35,577 bases of DNA. It comes from an uncultured Candidatus Saccharibacteria bacterium. GTDB taxonomy: Bacteria; Patescibacteriota; Minisyncoccia; Phycocordibacterales; PALSA-1337. The notes below the pieces were generated by a model, which ran no database searches, was not told where the DNA came from, and was given only the letters and a program-made list of their open reading frames with translations. A program made the translations under genes and the position numbers. The stretch is taken from contig CAZZPF010000009.1 of the NCBI GenBank assembly GCA_964655515.1, positions 1-35,577 on the forward strand. The letters run 5' to 3'. Every line of letters starts with the position of its first letter. Position 1 is the stretch's first letter. Below are positions 1 through 34,843 of the stretch, piece after piece.

Positions 1-48
1 ATTATTGCCTTGTTTAAATACATAAATTTTATAATGAGTTAATAATAA

Positions 49-537
49 TTATGCTCCCTTCACCATTTCATCAATACTTTTATCCATCTCTTCAATTGAA
101 GCGGGGGTTACTACTGGGGGTGTAACCTTAGTTTCTATAGCTAGTTCTGGTTGAATCTCTGTTCCTAATACATCTTCAGTTTTTATGATAGATGCAACAA
201 CAGCTTTTTTCCCTAGATATGTAGGCTCTTTGATGGTATTTATGATAAGCATTCTAAGCATATGTGGATTTTCCTCAAACGCTTTCTTTATGCCCTCAAT
301 CTCCTTCTTTGCTAGCTCAAACTTGAACCAGCCGAAATACCCTTGATCAAATTTGTGATTGAAGCCCGCAATCTTCTTGACCATAGTATATGCTAGTGTT
401 TTAAGTTCTGGATCCTCTTCGGCAATAAAAATTGCCCCTTTCTTTGAAAGGATTTCCTTTAGAGTTGTGACTTCAGATATCACTTTCTCTTGTGGAATTG
501 AAGATATCAAGAGATATCCTATTTCATATACCTGCAT
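49..537 (-). CDS. rpsF: 30S ribosomal protein S6
   Basis: Translation starts MQVYEIGYLL and contains LAYTMVKK, an S6-like pattern. An AAGGAAG RBS lies about 5 nt upstream of the ATG at 537. The tail is acidic and Pro-rich. The ORF also extends to an upstream ATG at 567, which lacks a good RBS. Confidence 0.6.
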   Translation of the reverse strand: MQVYEIGYLLISSIPQEKVISEVTTLKEILSKKGAIFIAEEDPELKTLAYTMVKKIAGFNHKFDQGYFGWFKFELAKKEIEGIKKAFEENPHMLRMLIINTIKEPTYLGKKAVVASIIKTEDVLGTEIQPELAIETKVTPPVVTPASIEEMDKSIDEMVKGA

Positions 538-818
538 CTTATCTTCCTTTAACGCTTTTTCTTGCATGTCTTTATGCCTTTTTAGGCAATAGTGAGCAAT
601 AATCCGCCCTTTAGTTCTTTATTTTAGCGGAGCATGGCCGTGCCAGCCAAGATTGTTCACATATTAAGTTGTTAATTTGCACGTACATGCAGACTAGCAT
701 ATAGAAAGAGATAGATCAACTATCAATGTCATGGTGAATGACATGGTGACATGTTAGCAAAGTGAGATGAAGATAGAATAAAAAAAGTATTAAATCTTAA
801 TGAATTTTTAATTTTTTT

Positions 819-1592
819 CTATATAGAAAACAATTTTTTCGCATTGTCAACAAGATGTGGTAATACTTTTTCAGGAGATTCGCCTTTGATTGAAGCAATG
901 GTGTGCGCAATCTCTGTTATAAAAGATGGTTCATTTCTTTGACCACGATAAGGTATTGGTGCCACAAGTGGCGCATCTGTTTCTGACATAATCATATTTA
1001 ATGGAACATTTTTAATTATTTCATTATAATCTTTAGCGAAAGTGATCACTCCAGTAAAAGATAATCTGAAACCTAAATCTAAAAATTGTTTGCCTTCTTG
1101 CCAATTTCCAGCAAAAAAATGCACATTGCCATGAACTTTGGCGTGTTTCTTTATAATTTCAATTGCATCTTTATATGCATTTTGCTCTTGTTGTATTCCA
1201 TTTCTCAAATGCAACATGAGTGGTTTTTTGACTTCATTTGCAATGGCGATTTGACCCTCAAATATTTCCTGTTGTGTGGCACGATTTTCATATCCTTGAC
1301 GATAATAATCAAAACCACATTCACCTATTCCTACGACTTTTGGATGTTCAGCAAGTTTTTTATATGAATTAAAATTAAATGTCTCACATGGAATTTCTAT
1401 TGGATGTAAGCCAATAATTGCCCAGATATCAGGATTTTCTTCGGCAAGTTTAATTGCTTTTTTTGAAGTTTCAAGGTTATTGCCAACTACTATCATACCT
1501 ACTTCTTTCTCTCTGGCTCGCGAAATCACATCAGCTTGGTCAATATCAAATGCCTCAAAGTTAAGATGGCAGTGTATGTCAATATATTTCAT
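819..1592 (-). CDS. tatD: TatD family metal-dependent hydrolase
   Basis: The N-terminus reads IDIHCHLNF and later motifs include GECGFDYY, HLR, VHFF and SETDAP, as in TatD metal ligands. The ATG at 1592 sits directly after the metG stop. The track ORF begins at a TTG at 1607. Confidence 0.8.
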   Translation of the reverse strand: MKYIDIHCHLNFEAFDIDQADVISRAREKEVGMIVVGNNLETSKKAIKLAEENPDIWAIIGLHPIEIPCETFNFNSYKKLAEHPKVVGIGECGFDYYRQGYENRATQQEIFEGQIAIANEVKKPLMLHLRNGIQQEQNAYKDAIEIIKKHAKVHGNVHFFAGNWQEGKQFLDLGFRLSFTGVITFAKDYNEIIKNVPLNMIMSETDAPLVAPIPYRGQRNEPSFITEIAHTIASIKGESPEKVLPHLVDNAKKLFSI

Positions 1593-1593
1593 A

Positions 1594-3036
1594 TTATTTT
1601 CTGACAAACAACGGTCGTACTGGCATTTTACCTCTCTTCACACATTCTTGTATTTCAATTGAGGTTGAAGGTAAAATAGGTTCAAGGGCTTTGGCTATAT
1701 GCCATATAGAAGCAAGGAGAAAAGACATTTGCTTTTTTGCCTTTTGAGGGTCAATTTTTATAGTCTTGAATGGTTCATTTTCCTGAATATATTTATCGGT
1801 TTCCTGAATCCTTTCCCAAATATCATCACAAACTTTATTTATTTCGTAGCGAGCATAAAAATCAGCATGTTTCTTAGAATCAAGAGCTGGTGCAGATTTT
1901 TCATCCAATTTAAGATCATTTGCTTCCACCATTTTCATAACTCTACTAACTAAATTTCCTAGACCGTTTGCCAGATAAGCATTGTAAGCTTGTTTGAATT
2001 TCTCCAAAGTGAAGGGGCTGTCTTCAAATGGATGGACTTCGCGAAGTAAATAATAACGCAATGCCGAAGCTCCATATTCTTTTATAATATCAAGTGGATT
2101 GACAACATTACCTAAGGATTTGCTCATTTTTATACCGCCTTCGCCGGTTATAAAACCGTTGATCACTATTTGGCGAGAATTCGGCAAACCAACCGACATT
2201 AGCATTGCTTGCCACATTGCGCTTTGCTGACGGAGATTATCTTTACCGCAGTACTGCACTACATTTTCAGAATCCACCCACCATTTTTTAAATTTCTTTT
2301 GATCATCAGGCCAACCAATGGCTGAAATATAGCTTACCAAAGCAGCAAACCATACATACATGACATGACTATCATCGTCAGGCACTGCTATTCCCCATGG
2401 CATTTTGCTTGTGAGGCGTGAGATACTGAAGTCCTGCAAACCCCTTTCTACAAAAGCTTTTATTTCATTATATCTAAATGAAGGAATGACAAAATCTGGA
2501 TTATTTTTATAAAACTCAAAAAGTGGTATAACAAATTCAGAAAATTTAAAAAAATAATTATCTTCATCAATTTCTTCAATTGCCATTAATGGATGTATTG
2601 GACATTTTTCATCAACAAGTTCGCTATCCGTTTTTTCAAGTTCACATCCCACGCAATATTTGATTTTATAATTCTTTTTATAAATAAATCCTTGATTTTT
2701 ACAAAGTTTCCAAAAAGCTTGAGCGGATTTTATATGATGGGCATCTGTAGTACGGATAAAGTTAACATCAGGAGAAATTTCTAAAAGTGAAATAAGTTCT
2801 TTAAATTTCGCAGTGTTATTATCTACATATTTTTGTGGATCCTGACCTAAGGCAATAGCGTTGCTGTGAACTTTGGCACCATATTCATCTGTTCCAGTAT
2901 TGAAAAAAACATCATAGCCCTCAATCTTTTTTGCTCGTGCAATCACATCAGCTTTAATAAATTCAAGGGCATGACCTATGTGTGGATCGGCATTTACATA
3001 AGGAAGAGTTGTGGTGATATAAAAATTCTTTGACAT
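1594..3036 (-). CDS. metG: methionine--tRNA ligase
   Basis: This is a class I aaRS. PYVNADPHIGH supplies the HIGH motif and KMSKSLGN the KMSKS motif. A CVGC...CPIH zinc-knuckle-like segment is present. Confidence 0.9.
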   Translation of the reverse strand: MSKNFYITTTLPYVNADPHIGHALEFIKADVIARAKKIEGYDVFFNTGTDEYGAKVHSNAIALGQDPQKYVDNNTAKFKELISLLEISPDVNFIRTTDAHHIKSAQAFWKLCKNQGFIYKKNYKIKYCVGCELEKTDSELVDEKCPIHPLMAIEEIDEDNYFFKFSEFVIPLFEFYKNNPDFVIPSFRYNEIKAFVERGLQDFSISRLTSKMPWGIAVPDDDSHVMYVWFAALVSYISAIGWPDDQKKFKKWWVDSENVVQYCGKDNLRQQSAMWQAMLMSVGLPNSRQIVINGFITGEGGIKMSKSLGNVVNPLDIIKEYGASALRYYLLREVHPFEDSPFTLEKFKQAYNAYLANGLGNLVSRVMKMVEANDLKLDEKSAPALDSKKHADFYARYEINKVCDDIWERIQETDKYIQENEPFKTIKIDPQKAKKQMSFLLASIWHIAKALEPILPSTSIEIQECVKRGKMPVRPLFVRK

Positions 3037-11025: not shown

Positions 11026-14000
11026 TTAAAGTAAATTTAATTTAACAGACAATTCTCTGAGGTTTTTTGCTTCGGAAACTACAGTCTCAAATCTGATGTC
11101 TGAGAGTAAGGCGACTCTGGTAATGTCTTTTTTATTTTTTATAATCAACTCCTTGCCTTTTTCATCGGTATCAACAACAAGCACCGCGTGGTCGTGTATG
11201 GTCAATCCCCTCTCCTTACGCAAATCCTGAATTGCACGCACAAGCTCGCGTACTGTTCCCTCTTCTTTCAATTCAGGCGTTATTGAAACATCCAAAACTA
11301 CTTCTTGGCTAAGAGAAGAATTAAAAATTACTTCTTTTACATTTATTTCGTCTTGTATAAGCTGAACAAGCCCTCTTGGTACAGCACTTTTTACAGTCAA
11401 TTTTGAGAGTGGCTGGCGGACATTTATCTTTGCCTTCATACGCGCTTCAAGGCCGAGGGAGGCAATGCGACGCGCTTCTTTCATGTCGGTAAGGATAGTA
11501 TGATCCGCCTTCGGATATGCCGGCCATTCTTCCAAATGTACACTTTCCTTGCCACCTTTTAATCGTACATAAATATCTTCGGCTAAAAATGGCATAAATG
11601 GCGCAATAAGTTTTGATAAATTTATAAGTACGGTGCGTGTTGTGGCAAGGGCCGCTATTTTGTCTTTTTCATCATCTCCCTTGAAGCGATCTCGTGACCG
11701 GCGAATATACCAAGTAGAAAGGTCATCAATAAAATCAGCAAAAGGACGAATTGCTCTATCAATTTCATATTTCTCAAGATTTAGAGTGACTTCACTTGCA
11801 AGTTCTGCAAAACGATTGACAATCCATATATCAAGGCGGTCTGTGCTTGTTATATCTTTGATATCTACTGTGGCATACATTTCATAAAAAGTGACAACGT
11901 TGTTTAGGCGACCAATGTGTTTTTTCACAACTTCATCTATACCTTTTTCCAAAAAGACAAAGTCTTGTCCACGCACAACAGGTGAAGACATTAGATAATA
12001 ACGCAGAGCGTCTGCGCCATATTTATTTATAATTGGTATAAGGTCAGGAAAGTTATTTTTAGACTTTGACATTTTTTGGCCATCTTCGGCTAAAACTTGA
12101 CCATTTACAACAACTCTCTTAAAAGCAGATTTACCGAAAAGAGCCACACTTAAAACAATCATTGAATAAAACCATCCACGGGTTTGATCCAAACCTTCAG
12201 CAATAAAATCTGCAGGATATCCTTTTGATTTTCTAAAGAAAATATTGCTTGGATCAAATTCTGTTCTATCAAATGGATAATGATATTCTGCAAAGGGCAT
12301 TGATCCAGACTCAAACCAACAATCAAAAACTTCTGGAACACGAATCAGTTTATTTCCCCTGAGAGTAACAAGCTCAAGATCGTCTATAAATGGTTTGTGG
12401 AGATCAAGTTCATATTCAGAGTTATGTGGTAATGGACAGAAGTCCAATTTAGATGGTTTGGCATTTTGATTATAATGATCTCTTGCTCCACGAAGAGCTA
12501 TTGACTGCTTTCTATCCAAACCTTGTACAACGGCAGTTAGTAAAAACAGCGGTGTATCATGAGAAATAATGAGAATATTTTTGTCTTTATATTTTTTTTC
12601 AAGATCATACAGTACATCACCCATACGCTTTTTTATATCAGCATAATTTTCTCCACCTTCGGGGGTTTTTATAAATCTGTCGGCGTGGGCAAAGTTTTTT
12701 ACAAAATGATCAAATGGTTTTCCATTCCACACACCGGCGTTTAGTTCGTGTATTCTGGGTTCAATAATAATTTTTGAGGGATCAAAAGCTAAAATTTTTC
12801 CAATTATATCTGCTGTTTCTCTAGTACGAATAAAAGGAGAAACGAAAACAAGATCAATCTTTTTATCTTTTAACCAAATACCTATTTCCTCGGCTTGCTT
12901 TTTACCTTTTTCTGTTAAGTGGTGGGAATTCTCTGCCACTGAACTTATGACCCTTTTTGTATTATTTTCTGCTTCACCGTGTCTAGTAATATAATAAGTA
13001 TTTTTTGAATGACTATATTTTTTTAATTCTTCTAGTCCAGAAATAACCTTATATTCATCGGTTTTCTCTACTTTCCAGACAGGCAAAGGAGCACCCCAAA
13101 ATCTAGACCGTGATATAGCCCAATCATGCGCATTTGCCAGCCAATTACCGAATCTTCCTTGGCCTATTTCTGGTGGAATCCATTGTATTTTTTTATTTTC
13201 CTTGACCAAGTTATGGCGAAGGGCTGTAACTTTTACAAACCAAGATGAAGAGGCATAATTTAAAAGCGGAGTCTCGCAACGCCAACAATGAGCATACGAA
13301 TGTACGATTTTTTCTTTTTCAAAAAGACTATTGTGATGTGCAAGATATTTTATAATTTCTATATCTGCTTTTTGATGATTGTCTTTTTCTTCATTTGTAT
13401 CTTTTGGCTTAACTGGCTGACCTTGAAAATCTATAACTTCTTTTTTGAAAGTGCCATTTGTGGCTATATGTTGAATAAAAGGTAAAGAATATTTAAGTGA
13501 CAAATCATAATCATCAGAACCAAAAGCAGGAGCAACATGTACTATTCCGGTGCCATCTTCCGTAGTAACAAAATCCGCACCATAAACCTTCCAACCATTT
13601 TGGTGATTTTTTAGGTTTTTATCATTAAAGTAATATGGAAAAACTGCTTCATATGATTTTCCTATGAAATTTTCTCCTTTTATTTCTTCAAGAATCTTGT
13701 ATTCTTTTTTAAGTACTGAAAGTCTATTTTTTGCAATAATAAATTTTTCATTAGCTATTTGAACTTTTGCATATTCAATATTGGCATTGACGGCAAGTGC
13801 AGAATTCCCCGGAAGCGTCCATGGTGTTGTCGTCCAAGCCAGAAAATATGTAGGTGATTCTTCATCAGACTGATCTAGTAATTTAAATTTTACATAAACA
13901 AAAATATCGGTAATATCTTTATATCCTAGATTAACTTCAAAATTTGAAAGTGTGGTCTCACATCTAGGGCAAAGATTCATAGACTTGAAACCTTCATAGA

Positions 14001-14517
14001 TTAAACCTTTTTTATAGAGTTCAGAAAATGCCCACCAGACGGATTCTGTATAACTAGCATCCATGGTACGATAATCATTATTCATATCCACCCATCGTCC
14101 AAGCCGAGGTATAATCCTCCGCCAATCTTCCGCATAACGCATTACACTTTCACGAGCCATGGCATTGAATTTTTCAATTCCATATTCAAGAATATCTTTC
14201 TTTGAACCAAGTTCCAGTTCTTTTTCAACAATATTTTCTACAGGCAATCCATGACAATCCCATCCCCAGCGCCGTTTCACATAATATCCTCGCATAGTTT
14301 TATAGCGAGGGATTATATCTTTTATTGTTCCAGGCACAATGTGTCCATAGTGCGGCTCGCCTGTTGCAAAGGGTGGCCCATCATAAAAAACAAACTGCCC
14401 TTTTGGTGATGGCTTTTCTAGAGATTTTTTAAAAATTTCATTCTTTTCCCAAAAAGCTAGTATCTTTTCTTCATTTTCTGCCATTTTGCTCTTTTCGGGC
14501 TTTTGTTCATTCTGCAT
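11026..14517 (-). CDS. ileS: isoleucine--tRNA ligase with an internal histidine-phosphatase (PGAM-like) domain insertion
   Basis: PPFATGEPHYGH is the HIGH motif, WTTTPWTLPGN marks the editing domain, WAISRSRFWGAPLPVW is conserved, and KMSKSKNN is the KMSKS motif. A module of about 200 aa carrying RHGE...SPFIRTRETA...ISHD is inserted (see findings). The start may instead be the ATG at 14484 (MAENEEKILAFW). Confidence 0.9.
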   Translation of the reverse strand: MQNEQKPEKSKMAENEEKILAFWEKNEIFKKSLEKPSPKGQFVFYDGPPFATGEPHYGHIVPGTIKDIIPRYKTMRGYYVKRRWGWDCHGLPVENIVEKELELGSKKDILEYGIEKFNAMARESVMRYAEDWRRIIPRLGRWVDMNNDYRTMDASYTESVWWAFSELYKKGLIYEGFKSMNLCPRCETTLSNFEVNLGYKDITDIFVYVKFKLLDQSDEESPTYFLAWTTTPWTLPGNSALAVNANIEYAKVQIANEKFIIAKNRLSVLKKEYKILEEIKGENFIGKSYEAVFPYYFNDKNLKNHQNGWKVYGADFVTTEDGTGIVHVAPAFGSDDYDLSLKYSLPFIQHIATNGTFKKEVIDFQGQPVKPKDTNEEKDNHQKADIEIIKYLAHHNSLFEKEKIVHSYAHCWRCETPLLNYASSSWFVKVTALRHNLVKENKKIQWIPPEIGQGRFGNWLANAHDWAISRSRFWGAPLPVWKVEKTDEYKVISGLEELKKYSHSKNTYYITRHGEAENNTKRVISSVAENSHHLTEKGKKQAEEIGIWLKDKKIDLVFVSPFIRTRETADIIGKILAFDPSKIIIEPRIHELNAGVWNGKPFDHFVKNFAHADRFIKTPEGGENYADIKKRMGDVLYDLEKKYKDKNILIISHDTPLFLLTAVVQGLDRKQSIALRGARDHYNQNAKPSKLDFCPLPHNSEYELDLHKPFIDDLELVTLRGNKLIRVPEVFDCWFESGSMPFAEYHYPFDRTEFDPSNIFFRKSKGYPADFIAEGLDQTRGWFYSMIVLSVALFGKSAFKRVVVNGQVLAEDGQKMSKSKNNFPDLIPIINKYGADALRYYLMSSPVVRGQDFVFLEKGIDEVVKKHIGRLNNVVTFYEMYATVDIKDITSTDRLDIWIVNRFAELASEVTLNLEKYEIDRAIRPFADFIDDLSTWYIRRSRDRFKGDDEKDKIAALATTRTVLINLSKLIAPFMPFLAEDIYVRLKGGKESVHLEEWPAYPKADHTILTDMKEARRIASLGLEARMKAKINVRQPLSKLTVKSAVPRGLVQLIQDEINVKEVIFNSSLSQEVVLDVSITPELKEEGTVRELVRAIQDLRKERGLTIHDHAVLVVDTDEKGKELIIKNKKDITRVALLSDIRFETVVSEAKNLRELSVKLNLL

Positions 14518-14529
14518 AGAGATATTCTA

Positions 14530-16230
14530 TCACATTCTCTTTGGCACTTTTATACCCAAAATCCATAAACCATTTTTCATAACCTGTGCAAATACTTTTG
14601 TTAGAGTAACTCTATAAGGCGACACGGGATCTTTTTTATCAATAATTTTATGGATTGAATAATAAGAATTGAACGCTGAAGCAAGTTCTGTGAGATAAGT
14701 CACTATATGTTGTGGCGAGTATTCAAGACGAGCTCTCTCAATAATTTCTGGAAATCTCACCAGAAGTTTTTCAAGAAGTGCAACTTTATCTGGCAATTCC
14801 GTTACTTTTTCTGAAATACCAACTTCTATTGCTTTTGCCAAAACGGCATTAGCACGAACAAATGAATATTGTAAATATGGTCCAGAATCACCATCAAAAG
14901 AAACTGCTTTTGATGGATCATAGATAATATCTCCCCCGATGGCCTGACGAAGTATTGTATATTTTAGAGCCGCTATAGTAATTATTTCTTTTATTTCTTC
15001 ATATTCTTTTTCATCAAAATTCCTATCTTTTATTTTCTTTTCTACGAGAATTTCAAACTCTCTCATTAATTCTTCCGCAGAAATAATATTGCCTTTTCTA
15101 GAAGACATTTTCCCAGACGCGGGACGCAGAATTCCATGGCTAATATGCTTCATTTTTGAAGCTATATCAGGATAAATTACTTTTAGCACAGCATGTATGA
15201 CATTGAAATAATCATTTTGTTCATTGGCAGTAACAACTATTGATTCATCTAAATCTGGATAAAGTTCAAATTTCTTTTTCGTCAAACCAAGCTCTTTTGT
15301 TTCATAAGTTGGCAAACCTTCGTGAGTAATGAAAACGCGAGTATGTTCTCCATACTTTTCTCCAGAAAAAATAATTGCTCCTTGGCTTTTTTCAAAAACT
15401 TCTTTTTTTGTAAATTCATGGACAATTTTCAGACCTTGTTGAGAAACCTCACTTTCAAAGAAAAAATGATCAAATTTTGTGCCTAACTTTTTATAAATAA
15501 TATCAAAATATTTTAAACTTAAATTTCTACCTTTTTTGTATACTTTATTTATCTCTTCATCAATATGTTCAAAAATTTTCTTATTTATTTCTATAATCTC
15601 TTTTTTGGCCATTTCATCTTTTTCGTATTTTTCTGAACCAATAACATACATATCTCCTAAATATTTTATGTTGTATTTTATTTTTGATTCAAATTTTCCA
15701 TTCTCAAGCACAGCCCAAATTGTTTTTGCCACATGAAGACCGATGTCTCCTTGATAACAAGCACGGATTACTTTTGCTCCGGAAAATTCAATCATTCTAG
15801 AGATGCATTCACCAATGGTATTTGCCATAACATGGCCGATGTGAAAAATTTTAAAAGGATTGGGATCAGTGTACTCTATCATCACTTTTTTGCCATTATC
15901 TAAACCTATCTTTCCAAATTGCTTCAATTGTTTTGAAGTCTCTAATATTTCTTTTAAAAAATAATGATCTGTTAATTTTATATTTATAAATCCTGGACTT
16001 GCAATTTTAACTGAAATAACTTCTTTGGGTATAGACTTTTTAAACTCTTCAATAATTTTCTGTGCGAGAAGTTTGGGACTAGTTTTTAGTTGTTTGGCAT
16101 AGACAAGAGCAAGATTAGTTGAAAAATCTCCAAAATCATTGTCTTCTGGATGTTCTAAATTAACCTTATAATCAGAAATACCTAGCTTTTCTAGGGCTTT
16201 TTCTAGGGCTTTTTTAAGTTCATCTATCAT
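14530..16230 (-). CDS. argS: arginine--tRNA ligase
   Basis: It has an N-terminal Arg-tRNA-binding-like domain. MIEYTDPNPFKIFHIGH supplies the HIGH motif. The anticodon-binding C-terminus ends ...VPKRM, as in ArgRS. Confidence 0.9.
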   Translation of the reverse strand: MIDELKKALEKALEKLGISDYKVNLEHPEDNDFGDFSTNLALVYAKQLKTSPKLLAQKIIEEFKKSIPKEVISVKIASPGFINIKLTDHYFLKEILETSKQLKQFGKIGLDNGKKVMIEYTDPNPFKIFHIGHVMANTIGECISRMIEFSGAKVIRACYQGDIGLHVAKTIWAVLENGKFESKIKYNIKYLGDMYVIGSEKYEKDEMAKKEIIEINKKIFEHIDEEINKVYKKGRNLSLKYFDIIYKKLGTKFDHFFFESEVSQQGLKIVHEFTKKEVFEKSQGAIIFSGEKYGEHTRVFITHEGLPTYETKELGLTKKKFELYPDLDESIVVTANEQNDYFNVIHAVLKVIYPDIASKMKHISHGILRPASGKMSSRKGNIISAEELMREFEILVEKKIKDRNFDEKEYEEIKEIITIAALKYTILRQAIGGDIIYDPSKAVSFDGDSGPYLQYSFVRANAVLAKAIEVGISEKVTELPDKVALLEKLLVRFPEIIERARLEYSPQHIVTYLTELASAFNSYYSIHKIIDKKDPVSPYRVTLTKVFAQVMKNGLWILGIKVPKRM

Positions 16231-26283: not shown

Positions 26284-27261
26284 TTATTTTTCTAATTTTA
26301 AATGTTTTTTGAGTTTGTAAGTATTTCCATGTCCAAGTAATCCACGATAAGAATTTACAGTTTCTTTTTTGGGATAACCTCTTAATTTTCTTATTATTTT
26401 TCTTTTTGTAGTTGTACGAATCTGTCTATGATATGGAAAGTGGACCCAGCCCAGAAAATCTACGCCCGAATCGTAGGTCTTTATGTATACTTTGTGCTCA
26501 TGGAGTGTGAGGTGTAATTTCTCATTCAGAAAAACGTGGAGCTTCGGCAGAATGTCTTCTAGATATTTTCTATCGTCAGACAGGATCGCAAAATCATCCG
26601 CATAGCGAAGATAATATTTTACTCGCAGTTCCTGTTTGAGGTACATGTCAAATTCGTGCATGTACACATTCACGAGAAGCTGAGACGTGAGATTGCCAAG
26701 TGGCAGTCCGACACCAGGAGCAGTTGTGTGAAAGCTCGAGACCACTTGATTAATGAGCCAGCGAATATCTGGATCGGCAATATGACGCTCGAGCACTTTC
26801 ATAAGGACCTCATGATCAACGCTTGCAAAGAATTTCCTGATGTCACACTTAAGCACGAAGCATGTGCGTGTGTAATTCTTGGACATCTTGCGGGCAAAAT
26901 CTCTGAAGCGGTCGAGAGCTCGATGTGTTCCCTTATGCTTTCGGCATGAATACGAATCGTGAATAAAGCGGGTGTGGAAATGCCAGTAAAGCTCTTTATA
27001 AATTAAATGATGCAGCACCCTATCACGCACAGTTGCTTTGTGAATGCTGCGAGGCTTTGGATCGGAAATATTAAACGCTGAGTACAGACCGTGAACATAA
27101 GTCTTATTTTTGAGGTCTGTATATAGGCTAGCGATGTTGATTGTGAGCTCGGCTTGAAATTTTATGACATCCTTTTTGTGCTTTTTGCCGCGTAGAAATC
27201 TCTCCCACGTCAGGAGTAAATTTTCGATTGTGATGATAGAATTGTAGGTATGAGTAAACAT
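26284..27261 (-). CDS. DGR-type reverse transcriptase
   Basis: RT motifs 1-7 are present: PRSIHKATVRDRVLHH, SYSCRKHKGTHRAL, VLKCDIRKFFASVDH, GLPLGNLTSQLLVNVYM (the DGR-diagnostic GxxxSQ), YLRYADDFAIL, LHLTLHEHKV and GVDFLGW. I chose the start at the ATG at 27261 (MFTHTYNSI...). The upstream part of the track ORF is antisense to avd. Confidence 0.88.
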   Translation of the reverse strand: MFTHTYNSIITIENLLLTWERFLRGKKHKKDVIKFQAELTINIASLYTDLKNKTYVHGLYSAFNISDPKPRSIHKATVRDRVLHHLIYKELYWHFHTRFIHDSYSCRKHKGTHRALDRFRDFARKMSKNYTRTCFVLKCDIRKFFASVDHEVLMKVLERHIADPDIRWLINQVVSSFHTTAPGVGLPLGNLTSQLLVNVYMHEFDMYLKQELRVKYYLRYADDFAILSDDRKYLEDILPKLHVFLNEKLHLTLHEHKVYIKTYDSGVDFLGWVHFPYHRQIRTTTKRKIIRKLRGYPKKETVNSYRGLLGHGNTYKLKKHLKLEK

Positions 27262-27287
27262 AACGAGCAGAATAAACCAGTAAGTAA

Positions 27288-27296
27288 CCCCCCCCC
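27288..27296. repeat. C9 (G9 on the minus strand) homopolymer tract in the RT/avd divergent intergenic region
   Basis: I read it directly as ...taagtaaCCCCCCCCCacga... It lies 27 nt upstream of the RT ATG and 19 nt upstream of the avd GTG. Confidence 0.9.
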
Positions 27297-27314
27297 ACGA
27301 TTCCACTCGTTCTT

Positions 27315-27656
27315 GTGCGTGCGAAAGAAGCGTACCAATTGTGGCATAGCTCAATCGTAAATTTAAAGCGTGTCGACCGCTACACGATCGGTGCAAAAGT
27401 TGACGATATTTTCCTCTCACTCCTCGAGCTCATATTCAGAGCATGCTTTGCTTATGACAAATTCGAGAAGCTGTCTCTGGTATCTCAGGCTATTGCAAAA
27501 TCCGACCTGCTCAAATTCTTTCTGCAATTGAGCTGGGAACATAAAGTCATTGACCATAAAAGTTACGGTGCACTGATTCTTCTTTTAGATGAAGTCGGTC
27601 GCATGCTTGGAGGTTGGAAGAAAAACCTTGGAGACAAAACTCCCACTAACAAATAG
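27315..27656 (+). CDS. avd: Avd-like four-helix-bundle protein (DGR accessory variability determinant family)
   Basis: The 113-aa protein has a GTG start. RYTIGAKVDDIFLSLLELIFRACFA...LLKFFLQLSWEHKVIDHKSYGALILLLDEVGRMLGGWKK matches the four-helix-bundle (23S rRNA IVS/Avd) family pattern. It lies between the TR and the RT but on the opposite strand. Confidence 0.7.
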   Translation: MRAKEAYQLWHSSIVNLKRVDRYTIGAKVDDIFLSLLELIFRACFAYDKFEKLSLVSQAIAKSDLLKFFLQLSWEHKVIDHKSYGALILLLDEVGRMLGGWKKNLGDKTPTNK

Positions 27657-27673
27657 TGGGAGAAATCATTTGA

Positions 27674-27795
27674 GTTGCAGAAGCAGAGGAAGGCATTGTC
27701 GTCGTTCCAGACATTCTCGAAGTTGCCAAGGTTGAACTTGAAGTGACCGTCCGAGTTGCAGTTCACATTCGGCACCCTGTGGTTGCCGTCGGCAT
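27674..27795 (-). repeat. DGR template repeat (TR)
   Basis: The 122 nt align without gaps to 28142-28263 at an offset of 468. There are 12 mismatches, and every one is a plus-strand T in the TR, which is an A on the sense strand. In the VR frame the TR is rich in AAC (Asn) codons. Confidence 0.9.
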
Positions 27796-28030
27796 ACCTC
27801 ATCAGCAATGTACGACGCGCCGTCTATTTCACCAAGAAGAGCACCGGCTCCCCTTTGAATTTTATTTCGAGTCTTATACTCGCTGGCACATCGCACCGAC
27901 TTATTTGATTTTTTCATGAAAGGCAGCACTCGTCCGCAAGGCTTACCCGACAGACCGCTCGCTGATTCCTTAAACGAGAATTCGATGACATGAAACCGTG
28001 GCCACATGCGCTATCTAGGTTCCGAACAAT

Positions 28031-28038
28031 ATTATACA
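28031..28038 (-). promoter_or_regulatory. candidate -10 element (TG-TATAAT) for a separate TR-containing transcript
   Basis: The minus strand reads tttTGTATAATatt directly after the target-gene hairpin. The -35 region (tcaatt) is weak. Confidence 0.3.
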
Positions 28039-28049
28039 AAATTTAGATA

Positions 28050-28084
28050 GAAAAATTGAGCCCTCGCAGTGAAGCAAGGGCTCA
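28050..28084 (-). terminator. hairpin downstream of the VR and target stop (terminator and/or DGR-associated stem-loop)
   Basis: tgagccct (28057-28064) pairs with agggctca (28077-28084) around a 12-nt loop. On the minus strand it is followed by atttttc. It lies about 50 nt after the stop codon. Confidence 0.5.
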
Positions 28085-28132
28085 AAGGATCTAAGATCCG
28101 AAGAACTAACTGAGTGTCCAAGTTTCCAAGGA

Positions 28133-28822
28133 CTACTCGACGTCGCAGAAGCAGAGGAAGGCATCGTCGTCGATCCAGACAATCCCGAAGCGGCCAAGGT
28201 TGAACTCGAAGCGACCGTCCGAGTGGCAGTCCACAGTCGGCACCCTGTGGTTGCCGTCGGCATCTGCCCAGAGACGATCCTTTTCATCGAAGGAAGCATA
28301 CCACTTGCCTTTCGGCAGTTGGTCGCGCTTCTGATCGAAGACGAGGGACGCGCCTTGTGCACCGGTGTGAATGGCCTTTTGAGTTGCCAAGAACGCCATA
28401 CGCTCTTCCGAGGTAGTGGTCCCACCGACGACTTGCTTGAACGCGCGAACGCGAAGCTTGTCGCCAGGCTTCAGGACCCGAGTCGGATTCGGGAAGTTCT
28501 TGTCGGTGATCTCGTCGTTGTAGTAATAGAACTTTTTACGGTTCTGCTTACCGAACGTCGTGAACCGCTTGTCGTGCACGTAGTTATCGGGCACCGTGAT
28601 GATGCCGAGGTCCACGAGCAGAGCGAACTTTTCGGTGGGTTCCGCAGGAGCTGTGGACTCCGGCTTCTTCCAATCGCCGAAACGTGCTTCCCGATCATCC
28701 GGAGAGAGGTTGTTGAACCGCTCCAACTGGCCGAGGGTGATCTGACCGCTTCGCACCTTTTGAAGGGTGTCGATTTGCAAACCAGCTAATTTGGCCGCAT
28801 CTGCGTCGATGATAGTGTTCAT
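28133..28822 (-). CDS. DGR target (variable) protein, 229 aa, no recognisable signal peptide
   Basis: A good RBS (AAGGAAAGGA) lies 6 nt upstream of the ATG. The gene is high in GC. The C-terminal 41 codons are the VR, and the protein ends ...AFLCFCDVE. Confidence 0.85.
   Translation of the reverse strand: MNTIIDADAAKLAGLQIDTLQKVRSGQITLGQLERFNNLSPDDREARFGDWKKPESTAPAEPTEKFALLVDLGIITVPDNYVHDKRFTTFGKQNRKKFYYYNDEITDKNFPNPTRVLKPGDKLRVRAFKQVVGGTTTSEERMAFLATQKAIHTGAQGASLVFDQKRDQLPKGKWYASFDEKDRLWADADGNHRVPTVDCHSDGRFEFNLGRFGIVWIDDDAFLCFCDVE
28142..28263 (-). repeat. DGR variable repeat (VR)
   Basis: This is the counterpart of the TR. It ends 2 codons before the stop codon. Eleven amino-acid positions differ from the TR-encoded sequence. 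Confidence 0.9.
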
Positions 28823-28894
28823 CGTTTGTCCTTTCCTTACAATGTGCTTTCGGAAATCTGCCGAATCAGTCGCAAGGGCATCTTGCTACTGTAA

Positions 28895-28923
28895 ATTATA
28901 CACCCTACATCATATTTTGTCAA
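28895..28923 (-). promoter_or_regulatory. consensus sigma70-type promoter of the DGR target gene
   Basis: The minus strand reads TTGACA (28923-28918), a 17-nt spacer, then TATAAT (28900-28895). It lies about 70 nt upstream of the target ATG. Confidence 0.6.
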
Positions 28924-28939
28924 TAGCTAGGTTAGAGCC

Positions 28940-28962
28940 AAAAATAGCCCTTGAAATAAGGG
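28940..28962 (-). terminator. small hairpin plus T-tract downstream of tRNA-His
   Basis: The minus strand reads CCCTTatttcAAGGGctattttt. The stem is only 5 bp. Confidence 0.35.
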
Positions 28963-28985
28963 TATTTTGAAGAAAAATATCGCAG

Positions 28986-29057
28986 GGTGACTACTGGGAG
29001 TTGAACCCAGACTAAAAGCTCCACAAGCTTCTGTGCTACCGCTACACCATAGCCACC
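28986..29057 (-). tRNA. tRNA-His (anticodon GTG) with encoded G-1
   Basis: The sequence is G-GTGGCTA...TAGTCAC-C. The anticodon stem GAAGC/GCTTT encloses the loop TTGTGGA. The T-loop is GGTTCAACTCC. No CCA is encoded. Confidence 0.9.
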
Positions 29058-29105
29058 ATATTTCACCTATTTGTATTAAGATGATAGCATCTTTATATCA
29101 GATTT

Positions 29106-29624
29106 ATGACTTCCTTGCCACACCCCTTTTTTAATCGTCCAGTCTTAAGAGTGGCTCGTGACCTCACTGGTTGTCATCTTGTTCGTCAAAAAGACCAAAA
29201 GATTGAGCGATACATGATAACTGAAACCGAAGCTTATGACGGTCATCATGACCTAGCATCTCATGCTTCAAAAGGCAGAACAAAACGAAATGAAATAATG
29301 TTCGGCTCTTCTGGATATTTTTATGTTTACCTTATCTATGGAATGTATTGGATGTTAAATATTGTGACAGGACCAAAGGGCTACCCTGCCGCCGTGCTTA
29401 TTCGTGGCATTGAAGGATATGATGGACCAGGAAAATTGACAAGAAAATTAGGTATAAAAGGAAAACTCAATGGAAAAAAGGTTGAACAAAAATCGGGGTT
29501 GTGGATTGAACCAAGAGAAAAGGATTTTAAAACTAAAAAAATCACTCGCGCAACACGAATCGGCATTGATTATGCCGGACCAATTTGGTCAAAGAAAAAA
29601 TACAGGTTTGTGTTTAAGGAATAG
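29106..29624 (+). CDS. mpg: DNA-3-methyladenine glycosylase (Mpg/AAG family)
   Basis: It reads FFNRPVLRVARDLTGCHLV, ITETEAYDGHHDLASHA, GRTKRNEIMFGSSGYFYVYLIYGMYWMLNIV. Confidence 0.85.
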   Translation: MTSLPHPFFNRPVLRVARDLTGCHLVRQKDQKIERYMITETEAYDGHHDLASHASKGRTKRNEIMFGSSGYFYVYLIYGMYWMLNIVTGPKGYPAAVLIRGIEGYDGPGKLTRKLGIKGKLNGKKVEQKSGLWIEPREKDFKTKKITRATRIGIDYAGPIWSKKKYRFVFKE

Positions 29625-29887
29625 TAAGCAAAAGAACAACACATAATACTGTAATACAAGCAAATATTCCTATAGTTTTTACCAAGAGTGAAACTGCAGC
29701 ATTTTTATCACCATCTAAATATATCCTTATTGGCTGATAGAAAAATATCAATCTGGCCATGACCACCCATCCTTTGCACATAAAAAATGAAAGTGGCCAT
29801 TATGGACACATAGGCAATTGCAAGTAAGGCATTTAAAAAGGGGTTTTTGGTCATGAAGATATTATAACTTATTTTATTATAATTTAG

Positions 29888-29969
29888 TGCTCGGGAGAGG
29901 ACTTGAACCTCCACGCCTTACGGCACACCCACCTCAAGGGTGCATGTATACCAATTTCATCACCCGAGC
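29888..29969 (-). tRNA. tRNA-Leu (anticodon GAG), long variable arm
   Basis: The acceptor is GCTCGGG/CCCGAGC-A. The anticodon stem CACCC/GGGTG encloses the loop TTGAGGT. The T-arm is GGAGGTTCAAGTCCTCT. It overlaps the 5' part of track ORF 29708..29914. Confidence 0.9.
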
Positions 29970-30407
29970 TTATACTTTAACTTCTTCCCTTTTCTCCTCT
30001 ACAGCATTTTCTTTTGAAACAACTTTAGTATCTGTGTTCTGATCTTTATCAATAGCGAGCATGCGACGCATTTGCTTGCGAATTTCCTTTGCGGCTTTTT
30101 CACGAACAAAGTAGAGCTTTGCTCGACGAACCTTTGAGCGACGAAGGAGTTCAATCTTATCAATCATAGGAGAATAGAGAGGAAAAATTTTCTCAACACC
30201 CACACTATCCATGACAGTTCTCACTGTAAAAGTAGCTCCGGCTTCACGACCATGTTTGTGTGCAAGTACAAGCCCTTCAAATGCCTGAAGGCGTATTTTC
30301 CCTTTTTCCTGAATTTTTTGCCAAACCTTTACAGTATCACCGGGACGCACATCTAATCTCTTTCTTTCTTCAACTTTTACTGGGGAAATAATGTTATTTA
30401 TAGTCAT
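29970..30407 (-). CDS. rplS: 50S ribosomal protein L19
   Basis: It reads RPGDTVKVWQKIQEKGKIRLQAFEGLVLA...FTVR...GVEKIFPLYSP.IDKIEL. It has a basic and acidic C-terminal extension. Confidence 0.9.
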   Translation of the reverse strand: MTINNIISPVKVEERKRLDVRPGDTVKVWQKIQEKGKIRLQAFEGLVLAHKHGREAGATFTVRTVMDSVGVEKIFPLYSPMIDKIELLRRSKVRRAKLYFVREKAAKEIRKQMRRMLAIDKDQNTDTKVVSKENAVEEKREEVKV

Positions 30408-30422
30408 AATATAGAAACAAAT

Positions 30423-31169
30423 CTAACATACGCCTTTATTTTTGGCAACTTTTGTGATTCCAAGTTCGTCAATAGCATTTTTAAAATCTTTTGGGATAGG
30501 AGATCTTACAGTTATCTTTTTATTAACACAATTTGTAAATACAATAGAAGAAGCATGAAGAGCAGTGCGACTGAAACCTAGAGCGTCTGGCTTCTCGGTG
30601 GCATAGAGTCGATCGCAGACAATGGGGTGGTTTATGGCCTTAAAATGGACTCGTATCTGGTGTGTACGGCCAGTCTTGGGTTCTGCTTCAATGAACGAAT
30701 ATCCCCTTTTATATGCCAAAAGCGTATACCATGTCTCCGCCTCACGAAGATCTCCTCTGGCTCCACGCGTAGCTGACCAGCGTCTGAAATCTCTCGGGCT
30801 TCTTCCAATCGGTCTATTTATAATTCCAAATTGATCTTTTATCTCGCCATAGACAAAAGTGTAATATTTTTTTGAAATAGTTTGGTTTTGGAATTGTTTT
30901 TTGAGACAATCATATCCCTTTTTAGTTTTTGCAATAAGAAGCACACCCGATGTGTCACGATCAAGACGATGAACAATACCGGGTCTTTCTATTATTCCAT
31001 AATCTTTGGTTTCAATCGGCTCACCTACTTTTTTTGCTTTGGGATATTTTTTTAGTATCCAATCAGTTAAAAATGGCCCAGTTGATTTGCCGTCTGGATG
31101 TACTACAATTCCAGCCGGTTTATCAATAGCCACGATGTTTGCATCTTCGTATAAAATAGGAATTTTCAT
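30423..31169 (-). CDS. RluA family pseudouridine synthase
   Basis: The catalytic motif is GIVHRLDRDTSGVLLIAKT. KTGRTHQIRVH is also present. There is no N-terminal S4 domain. Confidence 0.88.
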   Translation of the reverse strand: MKIPILYEDANIVAIDKPAGIVVHPDGKSTGPFLTDWILKKYPKAKKVGEPIETKDYGIIERPGIVHRLDRDTSGVLLIAKTKKGYDCLKKQFQNQTISKKYYTFVYGEIKDQFGIINRPIGRSPRDFRRWSATRGARGDLREAETWYTLLAYKRGYSFIEAEPKTGRTHQIRVHFKAINHPIVCDRLYATEKPDALGFSRTALHASSIVFTNCVNKKITVRSPIPKDFKNAIDELGITKVAKNKGVC

Positions 31170-31226
31170 GCTTTTATCTTGATAATTAAGAGAATATACG
31201 ATAATCTAACATAAGTCTATTTGTTT

Positions 31227-31302
31227 GCGCGATTAGCTCAGTTGGTAGAGCAGCGCTTTTACACAGCGAAGGTCGCAGGTTCGAATCCTGCATCGCGCAC
31301 CA
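31227..31302 (+). tRNA. tRNA-Val (anticodon TAC), CCA encoded
   Basis: The acceptor is GCGCGAT...ATCGCGC-A-CCA. The D-arm is GCTCAGTTGGTAGAGC, the anticodon loop TTTACAC, and the T-loop GGTTCGAATCC. Confidence 0.9.
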
Positions 31303-31327
31303 AGAAAATTATTTAAATTAACTATTG

Positions 31328-31399
31328 TGCCCTCGCGTGGAATCGAACCACGAATTACGGCTTAGAAGTCCGCAGTTATATCCATTTAACTACGAGGGC
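31328..31399 (-). tRNA. tRNA-Arg (anticodon TCT)
   Basis: The acceptor is GCCCTCG...CGAGGGC-A. The anticodon loop is CTTCTAA, with an A31/G39 mismatch at the stem end. The T-loop is GGTTCGATTCC. Confidence 0.85.
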
Positions 31400-31457
31400 A
31401 ATTTAAGCGCAAGCATTAGAGAATATAGCAGAAAAAACCTAAAATATAAAGAAAAAA

Positions 31458-31790
31458 TTATATGGATGGATCTCCTGGCCCTATATATCCTTTTTTAGCT
31501 TGTATACTTACTTCTTCTTTAGTATTAAAGTGGTTTATGATTGATGATAAATCTTTAGGATCAAACACTTTTTCTGATGATGGGTTTATAATATCTGTAC
31601 TTTTAATTTTTCCAGATGTTACTGCGCGGTACAGATAAAAACTATTAGTAATAAATATAATTATCAATATTAAACTAATAATCAAGATCAAAATCCAATC
31701 AACAAAAGAATTTCTTCCTATTTCCCTTATTGCATTTGCAATAGAGATATGCGGGACTTGTAAATATTTTTTCTTAAAAAGATTTGTCAT
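31458..31790 (-). CDS. small single-pass membrane protein in the pilus assembly cluster
   Basis: The ATG at 31790 lies directly after the upstream stop. It has one TM helix (WILILIISLILIIIFITNSF). Its position after the pilMNO-like genes is the only functional hint. Confidence 0.35.
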   Translation of the reverse strand: MTNLFKKKYLQVPHISIANAIREIGRNSFVDWILILIISLILIIIFITNSFYLYRAVTSGKIKSTDIINPSSEKVFDPKDLSSIINHFNTKEEVSIQAKKGYIGPGDPSI

Positions 31791-31791
31791 G

Positions 31792-32295
31792 TTATTTAAT
31801 AGTAAGTACTGATATATCAAGGGAAAGATTCCATTTGTGATCTCCGGAAGAAACAGTGTGAACATTGTTTATGGAAAGACCATAAGAAAGATTCTCAATA
31901 AGTATAAGGGCTTGCATTATATTTGACCATGAGCCCACAGCGTTTATATGGGCACCAACATAACCAGTTTCGGTATTTATGGATGAAAGACTTATGTTAG
32001 TTTTTGAATCACTGCTGATTTTTTCTATTTTTTCAATAAAATCAACCACTTTGTCCTCATTTATAAAAAAGGAGGTTATTTTTGATCTGTCAAGAATAGT
32101 ATTATTATAAATTTTCGTAAGTTCATCTTCGTGTTGTCTCTTTTCACTTTCAGTATTAATATCATTTATGAATTTGGAAGAATTTTCAGCTTGAGTGATT
32201 ATGGTCTTGTACATAAAAACATATCCTATTATAGAAAATACTGTGGCACTGATTGCAAAAATAATTAAAATGTAATGTCGTGAATTGATTTTCAT
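31792..32295 (-). CDS. PilO-like pilus assembly membrane protein
   Basis: It has an N-terminal TM helix, then a coiled-coil-like region, then a beta-rich C-terminal domain. It is the third gene after the pilM and pilN homologues. Confidence 0.4.
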   Translation of the reverse strand: MKINSRHYILIIFAISATVFSIIGYVFMYKTIITQAENSSKFINDINTESEKRQHEDELTKIYNNTILDRSKITSFFINEDKVVDFIEKIEKISSDSKTNISLSSINTETGYVGAHINAVGSWSNIMQALILIENLSYGLSINNVHTVSSGDHKWNLSLDISVLTIK

Positions 32296-32296
32296 A

Positions 32297-32848
32297 TTAT
32301 TCTACAAATGTTATGCGTATAGCAAAAGAAATATTCTTGGGTTTGGTAAGATCAGAAACTGGTAATTCAACCTTTGTAATCCTTTGATCGTCTTCAAGTT
32401 TTTTCTTAAATAAAAGAAGAGATTCACGGCTTATGGCTTTTCCTTGGACTATAGCTTCAGTGGATGAAGTGGCAGACCCTGATTTTGAAAGTTGGAAAGA
32501 AGTTAGGGTAACTTGAGCTGGGCGAAGTTTAGTAATTTCTGAAATTGTCTCACTAAATCTAGATATATTTTCATTAGCTTTGAGTTTTTTTATTATTTGA
32601 TAACTTTCTTTTAGTTCTTTTGAGATATTTTTTATATCCCGCGCTTCCCTGTTTTTCTCTAGTGTTTGAATTTTTTGAAAAGAGCTTTGTCCTTGTGAAT
32701 ATGAAAAAATGTATGCTGGAAAAAGTGATAAGATTCCGATTATTACTGCAATTGAAATGAAAAAGAGAAACATAACAAAGACTCGTGTTCTATACTCTCT
32801 TTTAAGAGATCTCATTTCCTTTTCTGGTAATAATGTGTAATGAATCAT
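32297..32848 (-). CDS. pilN: PilN-like fimbrial assembly protein
   Basis: The short N-terminus YTLLPEKE resembles the PilN INLLP motif. A single TM helix and a coiled region follow. It lies immediately downstream of pilM. Confidence 0.5.
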   Translation of the reverse strand: MIHYTLLPEKEMRSLKREYRTRVFVMFLFFISIAVIIGILSLFPAYIFSYSQGQSSFQKIQTLEKNREARDIKNISKELKESYQIIKKLKANENISRFSETISEITKLRPAQVTLTSFQLSKSGSATSSTEAIVQGKAISRESLLLFKKKLEDDQRITKVELPVSDLTKPKNISFAIRITFVE

Positions 32849-32860
32849 ATTTGTAAATAA

Positions 32861-33796
32861 TTATGGCAGTGCCAAACCAGCAGCAATAGCATAATCCAAT
32901 GAATCTTCAAATGATATTGGTGGAATGTAACTATCACTTGAAAAAGAATTCTGCCAAACTTTTGCAATTTCAACAGGAATCTTTGAATCTGGTGAGATAT
33001 GAGAACTTAGATCTTCAGTCAATGCTTCATGGCCAGAAATTACTATGCGACTTATTATTTTACCTTCTCCGTGTTCTCGCCAATATGTATAGACTTTTTC
33101 CACTTCCTTTTTTAGAAAAGCAATTTCTGATGCCTTTCCCCAGGCAATAGTTGAAGTGAAACAAACTACACCACCACATACTATATATAAGCCAGTTTTT
33201 TTATTCATAATGTGCACAATCATTTGTGTTTCAGTAGAATCGCTAGACACTATCGCTCTGGCAATGGCTTTTGCTTGAATTTCAAAAGAAATAACATTGA
33301 GTCCAGAATCTTTAAGAACTTTTAGATAATTCTTTACAAGATCGTATGGCGCTACAGAAACACTGGCATATGGTCTATCCCTGTTTGCTTCTGGAATAAG
33401 ATCAAAAAAGAAAATAGCATCTAATGGTGAAAGGGGTACATTTTCTTCCAATTTAAATTCTATGTTTTGCCTAATTTGGTCTTCATTGGCATTAGGAACT
33501 TCAGTTTTAAATAAATACATTCTTTCTTCAGGAAGAGATGCTTTTACAGTTGAAATTTTTAATTCTTTAACCAAGGTTGAAATTATTTTTGTAAGTTCGG
33601 CTGTATTTTTTATATTACCAGAATCTACAATTCCTGGATTTAGAATTTTTGTGCCATAACGATGAATAGTATAACCTCGTCTGCCTTCTTTATATTCTAT
33701 ACACCTTACGGCATCATCAGAAATATCAAGACCAGCATATGGAATATTTAAGAATTTTGGGGGAGGAAATAATTTGAAAAATGTCTTAGTAAACAT
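32861..33796 (-). CDS. pilM: type IV pilus assembly protein PilM (actin-like ATPase fold)
   Basis: GLDISDDAVRCIEY is a phosphate-1-like motif. The 311-aa size and the downstream PilN/O-like genes support the call. Confidence 0.65.
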   Translation of the reverse strand: MFTKTFFKLFPPPKFLNIPYAGLDISDDAVRCIEYKEGRRGYTIHRYGTKILNPGIVDSGNIKNTAELTKIISTLVKELKISTVKASLPEERMYLFKTEVPNANEDQIRQNIEFKLEENVPLSPLDAIFFFDLIPEANRDRPYASVSVAPYDLVKNYLKVLKDSGLNVISFEIQAKAIARAIVSSDSTETQMIVHIMNKKTGLYIVCGGVVCFTSTIAWGKASEIAFLKKEVEKVYTYWREHGEGKIISRIVISGHEALTEDLSSHISPDSKIPVEIAKVWQNSFSSDSYIPPISFEDSLDYAIAAGLALP

Positions 33797-33841
33797 ATGA
33801 TAATACTACGATTATTTATACCTTATTATATCATAAGAGTA

Positions 33842-34450: not shown

Positions 34451-34456
34451 ATTATA

Positions 34457-34843
34457 CTACGCTTTTGATTGTCTCTTATCAAGAAAACTTTGCAAGATAA
34501 GCGCCGCCGCCGAAGCATCCAGCAAATCGTTCTTGCCTTGAAACTTTTCTGCATGAGTGCTAGTCATGAATTCCGGTTCAAGATGAACTATAAATCCCCG
34601 CTTCTCCAAATCCATTTTGAAATTCAAGCTCTCGGTTAAAATGGCATTGGCTTCACCTTTATAATTTTTTGATTCGCCCAACACGAGTTCTTTTATATTA
34701 TTTTTCTTTGCAAGCTCAATAATTTCCGTCACAAGATTTTTTGAATTATTAATAACAATTAAAGGCATGGCGAATTGACAGTTTTCATCAGACACGGCTA
34801 TGCCCACGCGCTTTGTTCCATAATCAATGCCAAGAAATCTCAT
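34457..34843 (-). CDS. ruvX: Holliday junction resolvase-like RuvX/YqgF
   Basis: The N-terminus is MRFLGIDYGTKRVGIAVSD. Later segments read LVLGES and DASAAALILQSFL. Confidence 0.85.
   Translation of the reverse strand: MRFLGIDYGTKRVGIAVSDENCQFAMPLIVINNSKNLVTEIIELAKKNNIKELVLGESKNYKGEANAILTESLNFKMDLEKRGFIVHLEPEFMTSTHAEKFQGKNDLLDASAAALILQSFLDKRQSKA

Follow-up and report, generated by a model that had tools for sequence, protein, structure and literature searches.

A literature search for a phosphatase nested in isoleucyl-tRNA synthetase (IleRS) found no mention in print beyond Kantor et al. (2013, mBio), where a single sentence describes the IleRS of SR1 bacteria as split by a nudix domain together with a pair of phosphoglycerate-mutase domains, giving no borders, residues, distribution or function (PMC3812714). 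Here we describe the ileS gene of an uncultured Candidatus Saccharibacteria bacterium (Patescibacteria), located at 11026..14517 on the minus strand of a window of 35,577 nucleotides, by which we mean the whole stretch of DNA analysed (positions 1 to 35,577 of contig CAZZPF010000009.1, assembly GCA_964655515.1). We hold it to be nearly certain that this gene encodes a complete type-2 IleRS that carries, nested in the tip of its CP3 subdomain, a whole, catalytically complete-looking histidine phosphatase domain of branch 1 maintained by purifying selection. The nested phosphatase of IleRS was already known in print, in that one sentence, yet is uncharacterised, and the window protein is a further member rather than a first sighting. 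An earlier note on this DNA, made from the letters alone, had known of no described aminoacyl-tRNA synthetase with such an embedded domain; the SR1 enzyme contradicts that statement as regards mention, while as regards characterisation it stands.

A phosphatase domain nested in the isoleucyl-tRNA synthetase

The ileS open reading frame is uninterrupted and encodes a protein of 1163 residues that scores 872.8 bits against TIGR00392 (ileS), above the curated equivalog cut-off of 621.4. Its assignment to type 2 follows from its top matches among PDB sequences, 8C8U and 8WND, which rank far above the type-1 enzyme 1FFY, and from the presence of a C-terminal DUF5915 domain. Pfam recognised tRNA-synt_1 in two stretches, Anticodon_1 and DUF5915, with His_Phos_1 lying between the two synthetase halves. 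Motif searches located the HIGH signature as HYGH (residues 56-59; 14341..14352, minus strand), of which H56 and G58 are invariant in a 77-sequence alignment, the intact CP1 editing motifs WTTTPWT (at residue 228) and GTGIVH (at residue 322), and the KMSKS signature (residues 815-819; 12061..12075, minus strand). No second IleRS was found by tblastn in the window's own genome (591 kb, 98% complete), and ileS is the sole IleRS gene of this organism.

The borders of the insert were set by alignment with the P. megaterium IleRS2 (8C8U). In a phmmer search against PDB sequences, residues 12-502 of the window protein aligned with residues 10-478 of 8C8U and residues 700-1124 with residues 482-910, and the insert therefore comprises residues 503-699 (197 residues; 12421..13011, minus strand), taking the place of about three residues between positions 478 and 482 of the P. 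megaterium enzyme. It consists of the histidine phosphatase domain and a C-terminal linker (…FCPLPHN), whose motif PLPHN is kept in close relatives of the window protein. The segment before it (residues 1-502; 13012..14517, minus strand) contains the CP core, the CP1 editing domain and CP2, along with the first halves of the Rossmann fold and of CP3, and the segment after it (residues 700-1163; 11029..12420, minus strand) holds the second half of CP3 with the DLHKPFIDD hairpin, the second Rossmann half with KMSKS, the anticodon-binding domain and the DUF5915 domain. The IleRS motifs WAISR…PVW and VPEVFDCWF are 245 residues apart, WAISR starting at residue 466 and DCWFESGS at 732, and VPEVFDCWFESGS lies at 12339-12301 (motif search and codon arithmetic). 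The positions that the earlier note gave for this last motif and for the phosphatase residues RHG (12976-12984) and the second His (12559-12561) proved exact to the codon; its start for the first motif, 13125, takes in the preceding Asp, the WAISR block itself beginning at 13122.

By alignment, residue 502 corresponds approximately to residue 499 of the C. albicans (Ca) IleRS, in which CP3 spans residues 473-534 (PMC7191050), and the insertion site therefore falls within CP3; judged from these alignments, the insert occupies a surface loop at the tip of this variable subdomain. The topology of CP3 differs in every solved IleRS, zinc is bound there only in T. thermophilus, and the Ca and Sa enzymes also have no CP3 zinc motif (PMC7191050). 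The window protein has no cysteines at either knuckle of the CP3 zinc ribbon (CxxC…CxxC), a trait that is not universal in the IleRS family; in other Patescibacteria lineages (L047, L062) CxxC knuckles flank the insert, and all four of these cysteines are gone from the window protein.

Within the insert, Pfam His_Phos_1 (PF00300) matched residues 509-671 (12505..12993, minus strand) with E = 6.8e-31 and 107.9 bits, against a gathering cut-off of 21.7, and a six-frame search of the whole genome recovered the same domain with 112 bits at C9:12502-12993. The residues expected of a branch-1 enzyme are all present, namely the RHG motif with Arg512, the nucleophile His513 and Gly514 (12976..12984), the second catalytic Arg564 in SPFIRTRETA (12826..12828), the putative proton donor Glu591 in HELNAG (12745..12747), which aligns with the catalytic-position Glu of PhoE, and the second catalytic His653 in ISHD (12559..12561), all on the minus strand. 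These five residues (R512, H513, R564, E591 and H653) are invariant across an alignment of 112 full-length relatives, as are N519, S560, T568, E623 and R631. They are also intact in all IleRS-embedded copies sampled phylum-wide (24 single and 14 double-site copies, or 38, and 3 site-B copies), in which domain identity to the window copy goes down to ∼25-40%. Catalytic residues have been lost in some copies outside IleRS, namely the genome's own free copy on contig C7 and those at L027, L034 and L074. Mean identity to the window protein was 62% in the phosphatase, compared with 65% in CP1, 66% in the anticodon-binding domain and 47% in the C-terminal domain, and at the level of these comparisons purifying selection on the phosphatase domain equals in strength that acting on the domains for editing and anticodon binding.

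The AlphaFold2 model of the whole protein (mean pLDDT 80.6, pTM 0.72) superposes on the IleRS2 and yeast IleRS structures with target-normalised TM-scores of 0.78-0.86. Residues 503-680 have a pLDDT of about 88-96, β and α elements alternate between residues 507 and 665, and in the model the phosphatase folds as a separate α/β domain. The pLDDT falls below 50 at several catalytic-core loops of high conservation (residues 49-53, 88-92, 180-203, 407-422, 469-474 and 730-741, some of them HIGH- or WAISR-proximal), which probably reflects a shallow alignment of closely related sequences.

The GC content of the insert is 0.340 versus 0.367. Its codon-usage distance is one also found among ileS segments of the same size, and in GC, GC3 and codon usage alike it does not depart from the span seen in the remainder of the gene. 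The earlier note had described a continuous reading frame of host-like composition that keeps the HIGH, editing and KMSKS elements and carries a branch-1 phosphatase with an intact Arg/His/Arg/His set, for which it proposed a His_Phos_1 profile search; each part of this description agrees with the results given above.

Distribution across Patescibacteria and other tRNA synthetases

A region-restricted search of 5.8 billion proteins returned 1372 matches, and all of the at least 120 clusters listed combine IleRS domains with PF00300. Among the matches listed, the organisms named by source are Patescibacteria, Paceibacterota or Pacebacteria. The clusters stem from independent assemblies (NCBI, ENA, JGI and Logan), so the architecture recurs far beyond chance, in line with the earlier note's view of a functional-looking fusion rather than a misassembly. 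In a sample of 401 genomes of the phylum, which was surveyed twice, the second time with the generic Pfam model, the fused form was present in seven of seven genomes of the window's order and in 12 of the 16 genomes making up the rest of its class; three others (family f16) have an unfused IleRS with a phosphatase gene upstream, and one (G077) has neither. The earlier note had made its claim depend on the insert not being a common, annotated IleRS module. The domain is near-universal in the class and common in the phylum, which in part tells against the claim, though the module remains uncharacterised.

Hosts in this sample were classified by comparing matches in long open reading frames with the genome's own IleRS, valyl-tRNA synthetase (ValRS) and leucyl-tRNA synthetase and with Pfam/NCBIfam, and what is said of hosts here holds among the matches listed. 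Internally nested copies occurred only in tRNA synthetases, and none was seen in any other large essential protein. Most hosts were IleRS proteins whose copy occupies the CP3 loop, as it does in the window protein. The IleRS of family f20 carries a second copy, which belongs to another clade of phosphatases and has a second site of its own, right behind the DLHKPxxDD hairpin, and what had appeared to be tandem double inserts in this family are two separate sites on either side of that hairpin; in family f90 the domain is found where the anticodon-binding domain begins, the third of the IleRS insertion sites. Ten ValRS hosts carry the domain in the loop homologous to the IleRS CP3 site, and one ValRS (L091 2619-6089 (-), genome G116; TIGR00422 valS, 642 bits) holds a GNAT domain (residues 531-636) and a histidine phosphatase (residues 680-862) nested together. 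The domain also reaches class II: in five genomes of family f56 (L073 3823-6159 (+), L078 and L093-L095) it lies inside the catalytic domain of alanyl-tRNA synthetase (AlaRS), between FMQYDK and the DTGMGLER motif, an architecture represented by only six clusters in the large protein collection. In total, nesting extends to three synthetase families, two classes and five or more sites.

Free-standing relatives, gene neighbourhood and phosphatase phylogeny

The 40 best free-standing matches were examined for their surroundings. Five share the strand of ileS and lie upstream of it within 3 kb, three in family f16 and two in family f81, and a further free copy, in family f133 (L071), is found a short way downstream of an ileS that has a nested copy as well; the proposal that the free phosphatase generally adjoins ileS is thus only partly true. 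In family f16 (L004, L005 and L006), where IleRS is unfused, the gene order is argS, phosphatase, another gene, ileS, and in family f81 the free copy upstream of ileS is accompanied by a nested copy from a different phosphatase clade. The gene between the free phosphatase and ileS in f16 encodes an alternative-oxidase-like protein of 250 residues (PF01786, ∼42-44 bits; L004 6028-6792 (+), L005 4713-5453 (-)), of which no homologue was found in the window's genome. Elsewhere, a Nudix gene lies directly upstream of the free copy in L035, and other neighbours include SurE and dihydroorotate dehydrogenase (L026), a deoxyribosyltransferase-thymidylate kinase fusion (L043), chorismate synthase (L036, two genes away), YchF, and an HD-OB protein with an NYN nuclease.

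A tree of 92 phosphatase domains, obtained by a quick search and of low resolution, was used only to ask whether more than one phosphatase lineage has been recruited. One side of a branch with SH-aLRT support of 87 contains all IleRS first-site, site-B and ValRS copies, five of the six ileS-adjacent copies and eight free copies, and on the other side most of the free copies group with those of AlaRS and of the second site, a division suggesting that more than one phosphatase lineage was recruited into synthetases.

Two free relatives are encoded in the window's own genome. The first (L001; G000:C7:694-1308 (-)) is a His_Phos_1 protein of 204 residues between aroA (EPSP synthase) and aroC (chorismate synthase), in which the catalytic Glu is replaced by Thr and the second His by Ser. 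A recent duplication of this gene was rejected as the source of the nested domain, with which it shares 28% identity; it belongs to another clade and has lost the Glu and second His. The other (L003 1417-2259 (+), on G000:C11) is a divergent RHG protein of 280 residues that scores 18 bits, below the Pfam cut-off, and has RHG, S..R..QTA and Glu- and His-like motifs. Its neighbours on either side are a glycosyltransferase-like protein that matches Nudix at its C terminus (36-1352 (-)) and a free Nudix gene (2304-2828 (+)), and this locus is another pairing of Nudix and phosphatase.

Possible roles of the nested phosphatase

If the domain follows the standard branch-1 mechanism, phosphate would be transferred to His513, Arg512, Arg564 and His653 would hold the phosphate, and Glu591 would serve as the acid. 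We lean slightly, with a probability of roughly 0.45, towards the reading that the phosphatase is a functional partner of the synthetase, tied to aminoacylation, and not a random passenger; the domain would be a working phosphomonoesterase, retained on the synthetase for a task linked to that reaction. We lean this way because the domain is nested in three synthetase families, two classes and at least five sites, because the nested copies come from more than one phosphatase clade, and because free copies adjoin ileS in three lineages (f16, f81 and f133). The substrate would most likely be a small nucleotide-type phosphomonoester that is produced, used or bound at the synthetase, since Nudix domains recur beside the phosphatase (as neighbor in L035, as fusion partner in L089 and in the SR1 IleRS) and free copies have nucleotide-salvage genes as neighbors. 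Action on the tRNA backbone seems less likely, and a tRNA-backbone or 3′-end phosphatase found no support in a crude test of charge, nested domains being no more basic than free ones (mean isoelectric point ∼7.1 for IleRS-nested, 5.7 for ValRS-nested, 5.3 for AlaRS-nested and 7.2 for free copies).

Several observations weigh against such a coupling and bring a simpler account close to it, in which an ordinary house-cleaning or salvage phosphatase, acting on nucleotides or sugar phosphates by a chemistry unrelated to aminoacylation, has settled in a permissive loop, within a gene that is essential and steadily expressed, the benefit being at most co-expression with the translation machinery. 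Most IleRS genes of the phylum have no phosphatase domain, and IleRS therefore does not need one; within the window's own class, G077 has none. Among the 40 best free relatives, 35 are not close to ileS, and free relatives occur among genes of nucleotide metabolism rather than synthetase genes. End-to-end fusions recognised by Pfam join His_Phos_1 to non-synthetases, namely a D-2-hydroxyacid dehydrogenase in four genomes (L084-L087, one of them in the window's order), Nudix in one (L089) and a VTT membrane domain in one (L088). The CP3 fold varies between the solved IleRS structures (PMC7191050), and CP3 may simply tolerate insertions; moreover, no substrate links the phosphatase to the synthetase. 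This account has to explain why, among the matches listed, all resolved internal insertions are in synthetases and none is in another large essential protein, and why free copies of different clades came to adjoin ileS in three families. We regard it as a serious possibility, somewhat short of even odds, and the two readings remain close. By comparison, it is improbable that the domain mainly serves as a scaffold in place of a lost CP3 zinc ribbon, with catalysis irrelevant or lost. The window protein does lack the four zinc-knuckle cysteines that flank the site in other lineages and in the P. megaterium IleRS2, and close relatives share the linker motif PLPHN, but the five catalytic residues are invariant in the 112 relatives and in the sampled IleRS-embedded copies even at ∼25-40% domain identity, whereas some non-IleRS copies (C7, L027, L034 and L074) did lose theirs. 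The purely structural role that the earlier note had offered as one of its guesses is disfavored on the same grounds.

A specific metabolic enzyme, whether phosphoglycerate mutase, phosphoserine phosphatase, alpha-ribazole phosphatase or a pyrophosphatase pulling amino-acid activation forward, appears equally improbable. There is weak NCBIfam similarity to CobC, archaeal dPGM and PspA, but the scores lie far under the cut-offs, at 76.1 bits versus an equivalog cut-off of 162.9 for alpha-ribazole phosphatase CobC (TIGR03162), 75.8 versus 225 for the glycolytic cofactor-dependent phosphoglycerate mutase (NF038349 / TIGR01258), and 59.8 versus an equivalog cut-off of 350 for phosphoserine phosphatase PspA (NF045917). 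The cofactor-independent mutase (iPGM) was not found in the genome and PGK is present, which might seem to leave room for a mutase; enolase, however, was likewise not found in this 98%-complete genome, so a mutase product would have no outlet. A substitute pyrophosphatase is unnecessary, as the genome encodes both a membrane H+-PPase (913 bits) and a PPase of the soluble kind (140 bits). In a search for anti-phage defence, no PADLOC-DB family matched the inserted domain at E ≤ 0.01. An assembly chimera or recent foreign insertion can be given next to no credence, given the continuous frame, the absence of any compositional signal in GC, GC3 or codon usage, and the same architecture in >100 clusters from NCBI, ENA, JGI and Logan.

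A broader and more doubtful proposal is that Patescibacteria have repeatedly built histidine phosphatase, Nudix and GNAT domains into surface loops of IleRS, ValRS and AlaRS as an on-enzyme station for the clean-up of nucleotide by-products of the aminoacylation cycle or for protection from toxic analogues of its intermediates. Such a station, if it exists, would give tRNA synthetases an accessory catalytic activity for which there is no characterised precedent. The tRNA synthetases are among the best-studied enzymes, and a phosphatase that works with them would point to an unstudied layer of synthetase biology in one bacterial radiation, which could bear on nucleotide management or on the protection of translation in ultra-small, nucleotide-scavenging cells. 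Were the domain only a passenger, it would show streamlined genomes packing enzymes into permissive loops. For protein engineering, the protein offers, besides, a case from nature in which a domain has been inserted into an essential enzyme.

Other features of the window and genome

Directly upstream of ileS lies argS (arginyl-tRNA synthetase, ArgRS; 14530..16230, minus strand), named from its translation and by comparison with L004 and L006, in which Pfam identifies an ArgRS at this position. Further along the window, positions 27000-29000 have a GC content of 0.45-0.52 compared with ∼0.35 elsewhere and contain overlapping open reading frames on both strands (28015-28822); no Rfam family was found in this region except a tRNA-His at 28985-29056. 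From there to the end of the window (28985-35577) runs a loose tRNA cluster (His-GTG, Leu-GAG, Val-TAC, Arg-TCT and Ser-TGA), with a tRNA at 35513-35577 cut by the window end. Outside the window, the genome encodes a ValRS of 714 residues at G000:C38:16414-18555 and a second, ValRS-like fragment at G000:C16:3228-3755 (65% identity over 176 residues), which may represent an additional, fragmentary copy or else contamination (estimated at 3.2%).

Comparison with known systems

As a synthetase, the window protein is of the same family and domain order as the type-2 IleRS enzymes of known structure (P. megaterium IleRS2, 8C8U/8C8V; T. thermophilus, 1ILE; yeast, 8WND), with E = 1.7e-216 by sequence, but those enzymes have a CP3 of ∼50 residues with no insert, and a zinc ribbon in the P. 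megaterium and T. thermophilus proteins. As a phosphatase, the insert belongs with small enzymes like PhoE, PspA and CobC; it shares its fold family and the alignment of its catalytic positions with PhoE of Geobacillus (1EBB/1H2E), PspA of Hydrogenobacter (4IJ5), TIGAR (3E9C) and CobC (6NRU), the closest solved sequences being PhoE (E ∼1e-12) and PspA. Those four enzymes are free-standing and match only at E ∼1e-12, whereas the window domain is nested and reaches no NCBIfam equivalog cut-off. The carriage of a small enzyme domain by IleRS has a parallel in NCBIfam NF040702 (ileS_w_GNAT), where the domain is an N-acetyltransferase; the window protein differs in having no GNAT domain, and scores 331 bits against a cut-off of 1999. 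The nearest likeness is to the SR1 enzyme of Kantor et al. (2013), also an IleRS of the candidate phyla radiation interrupted by domains of the phosphoglycerate-mutase (histidine phosphatase) family (PMC3812714). That protein belongs to another lineage of the radiation (SR1, or Absconditabacteria) and carries a nudix and two phosphatase domains, whereas the IleRS of the window carries one phosphatase and no nudix.

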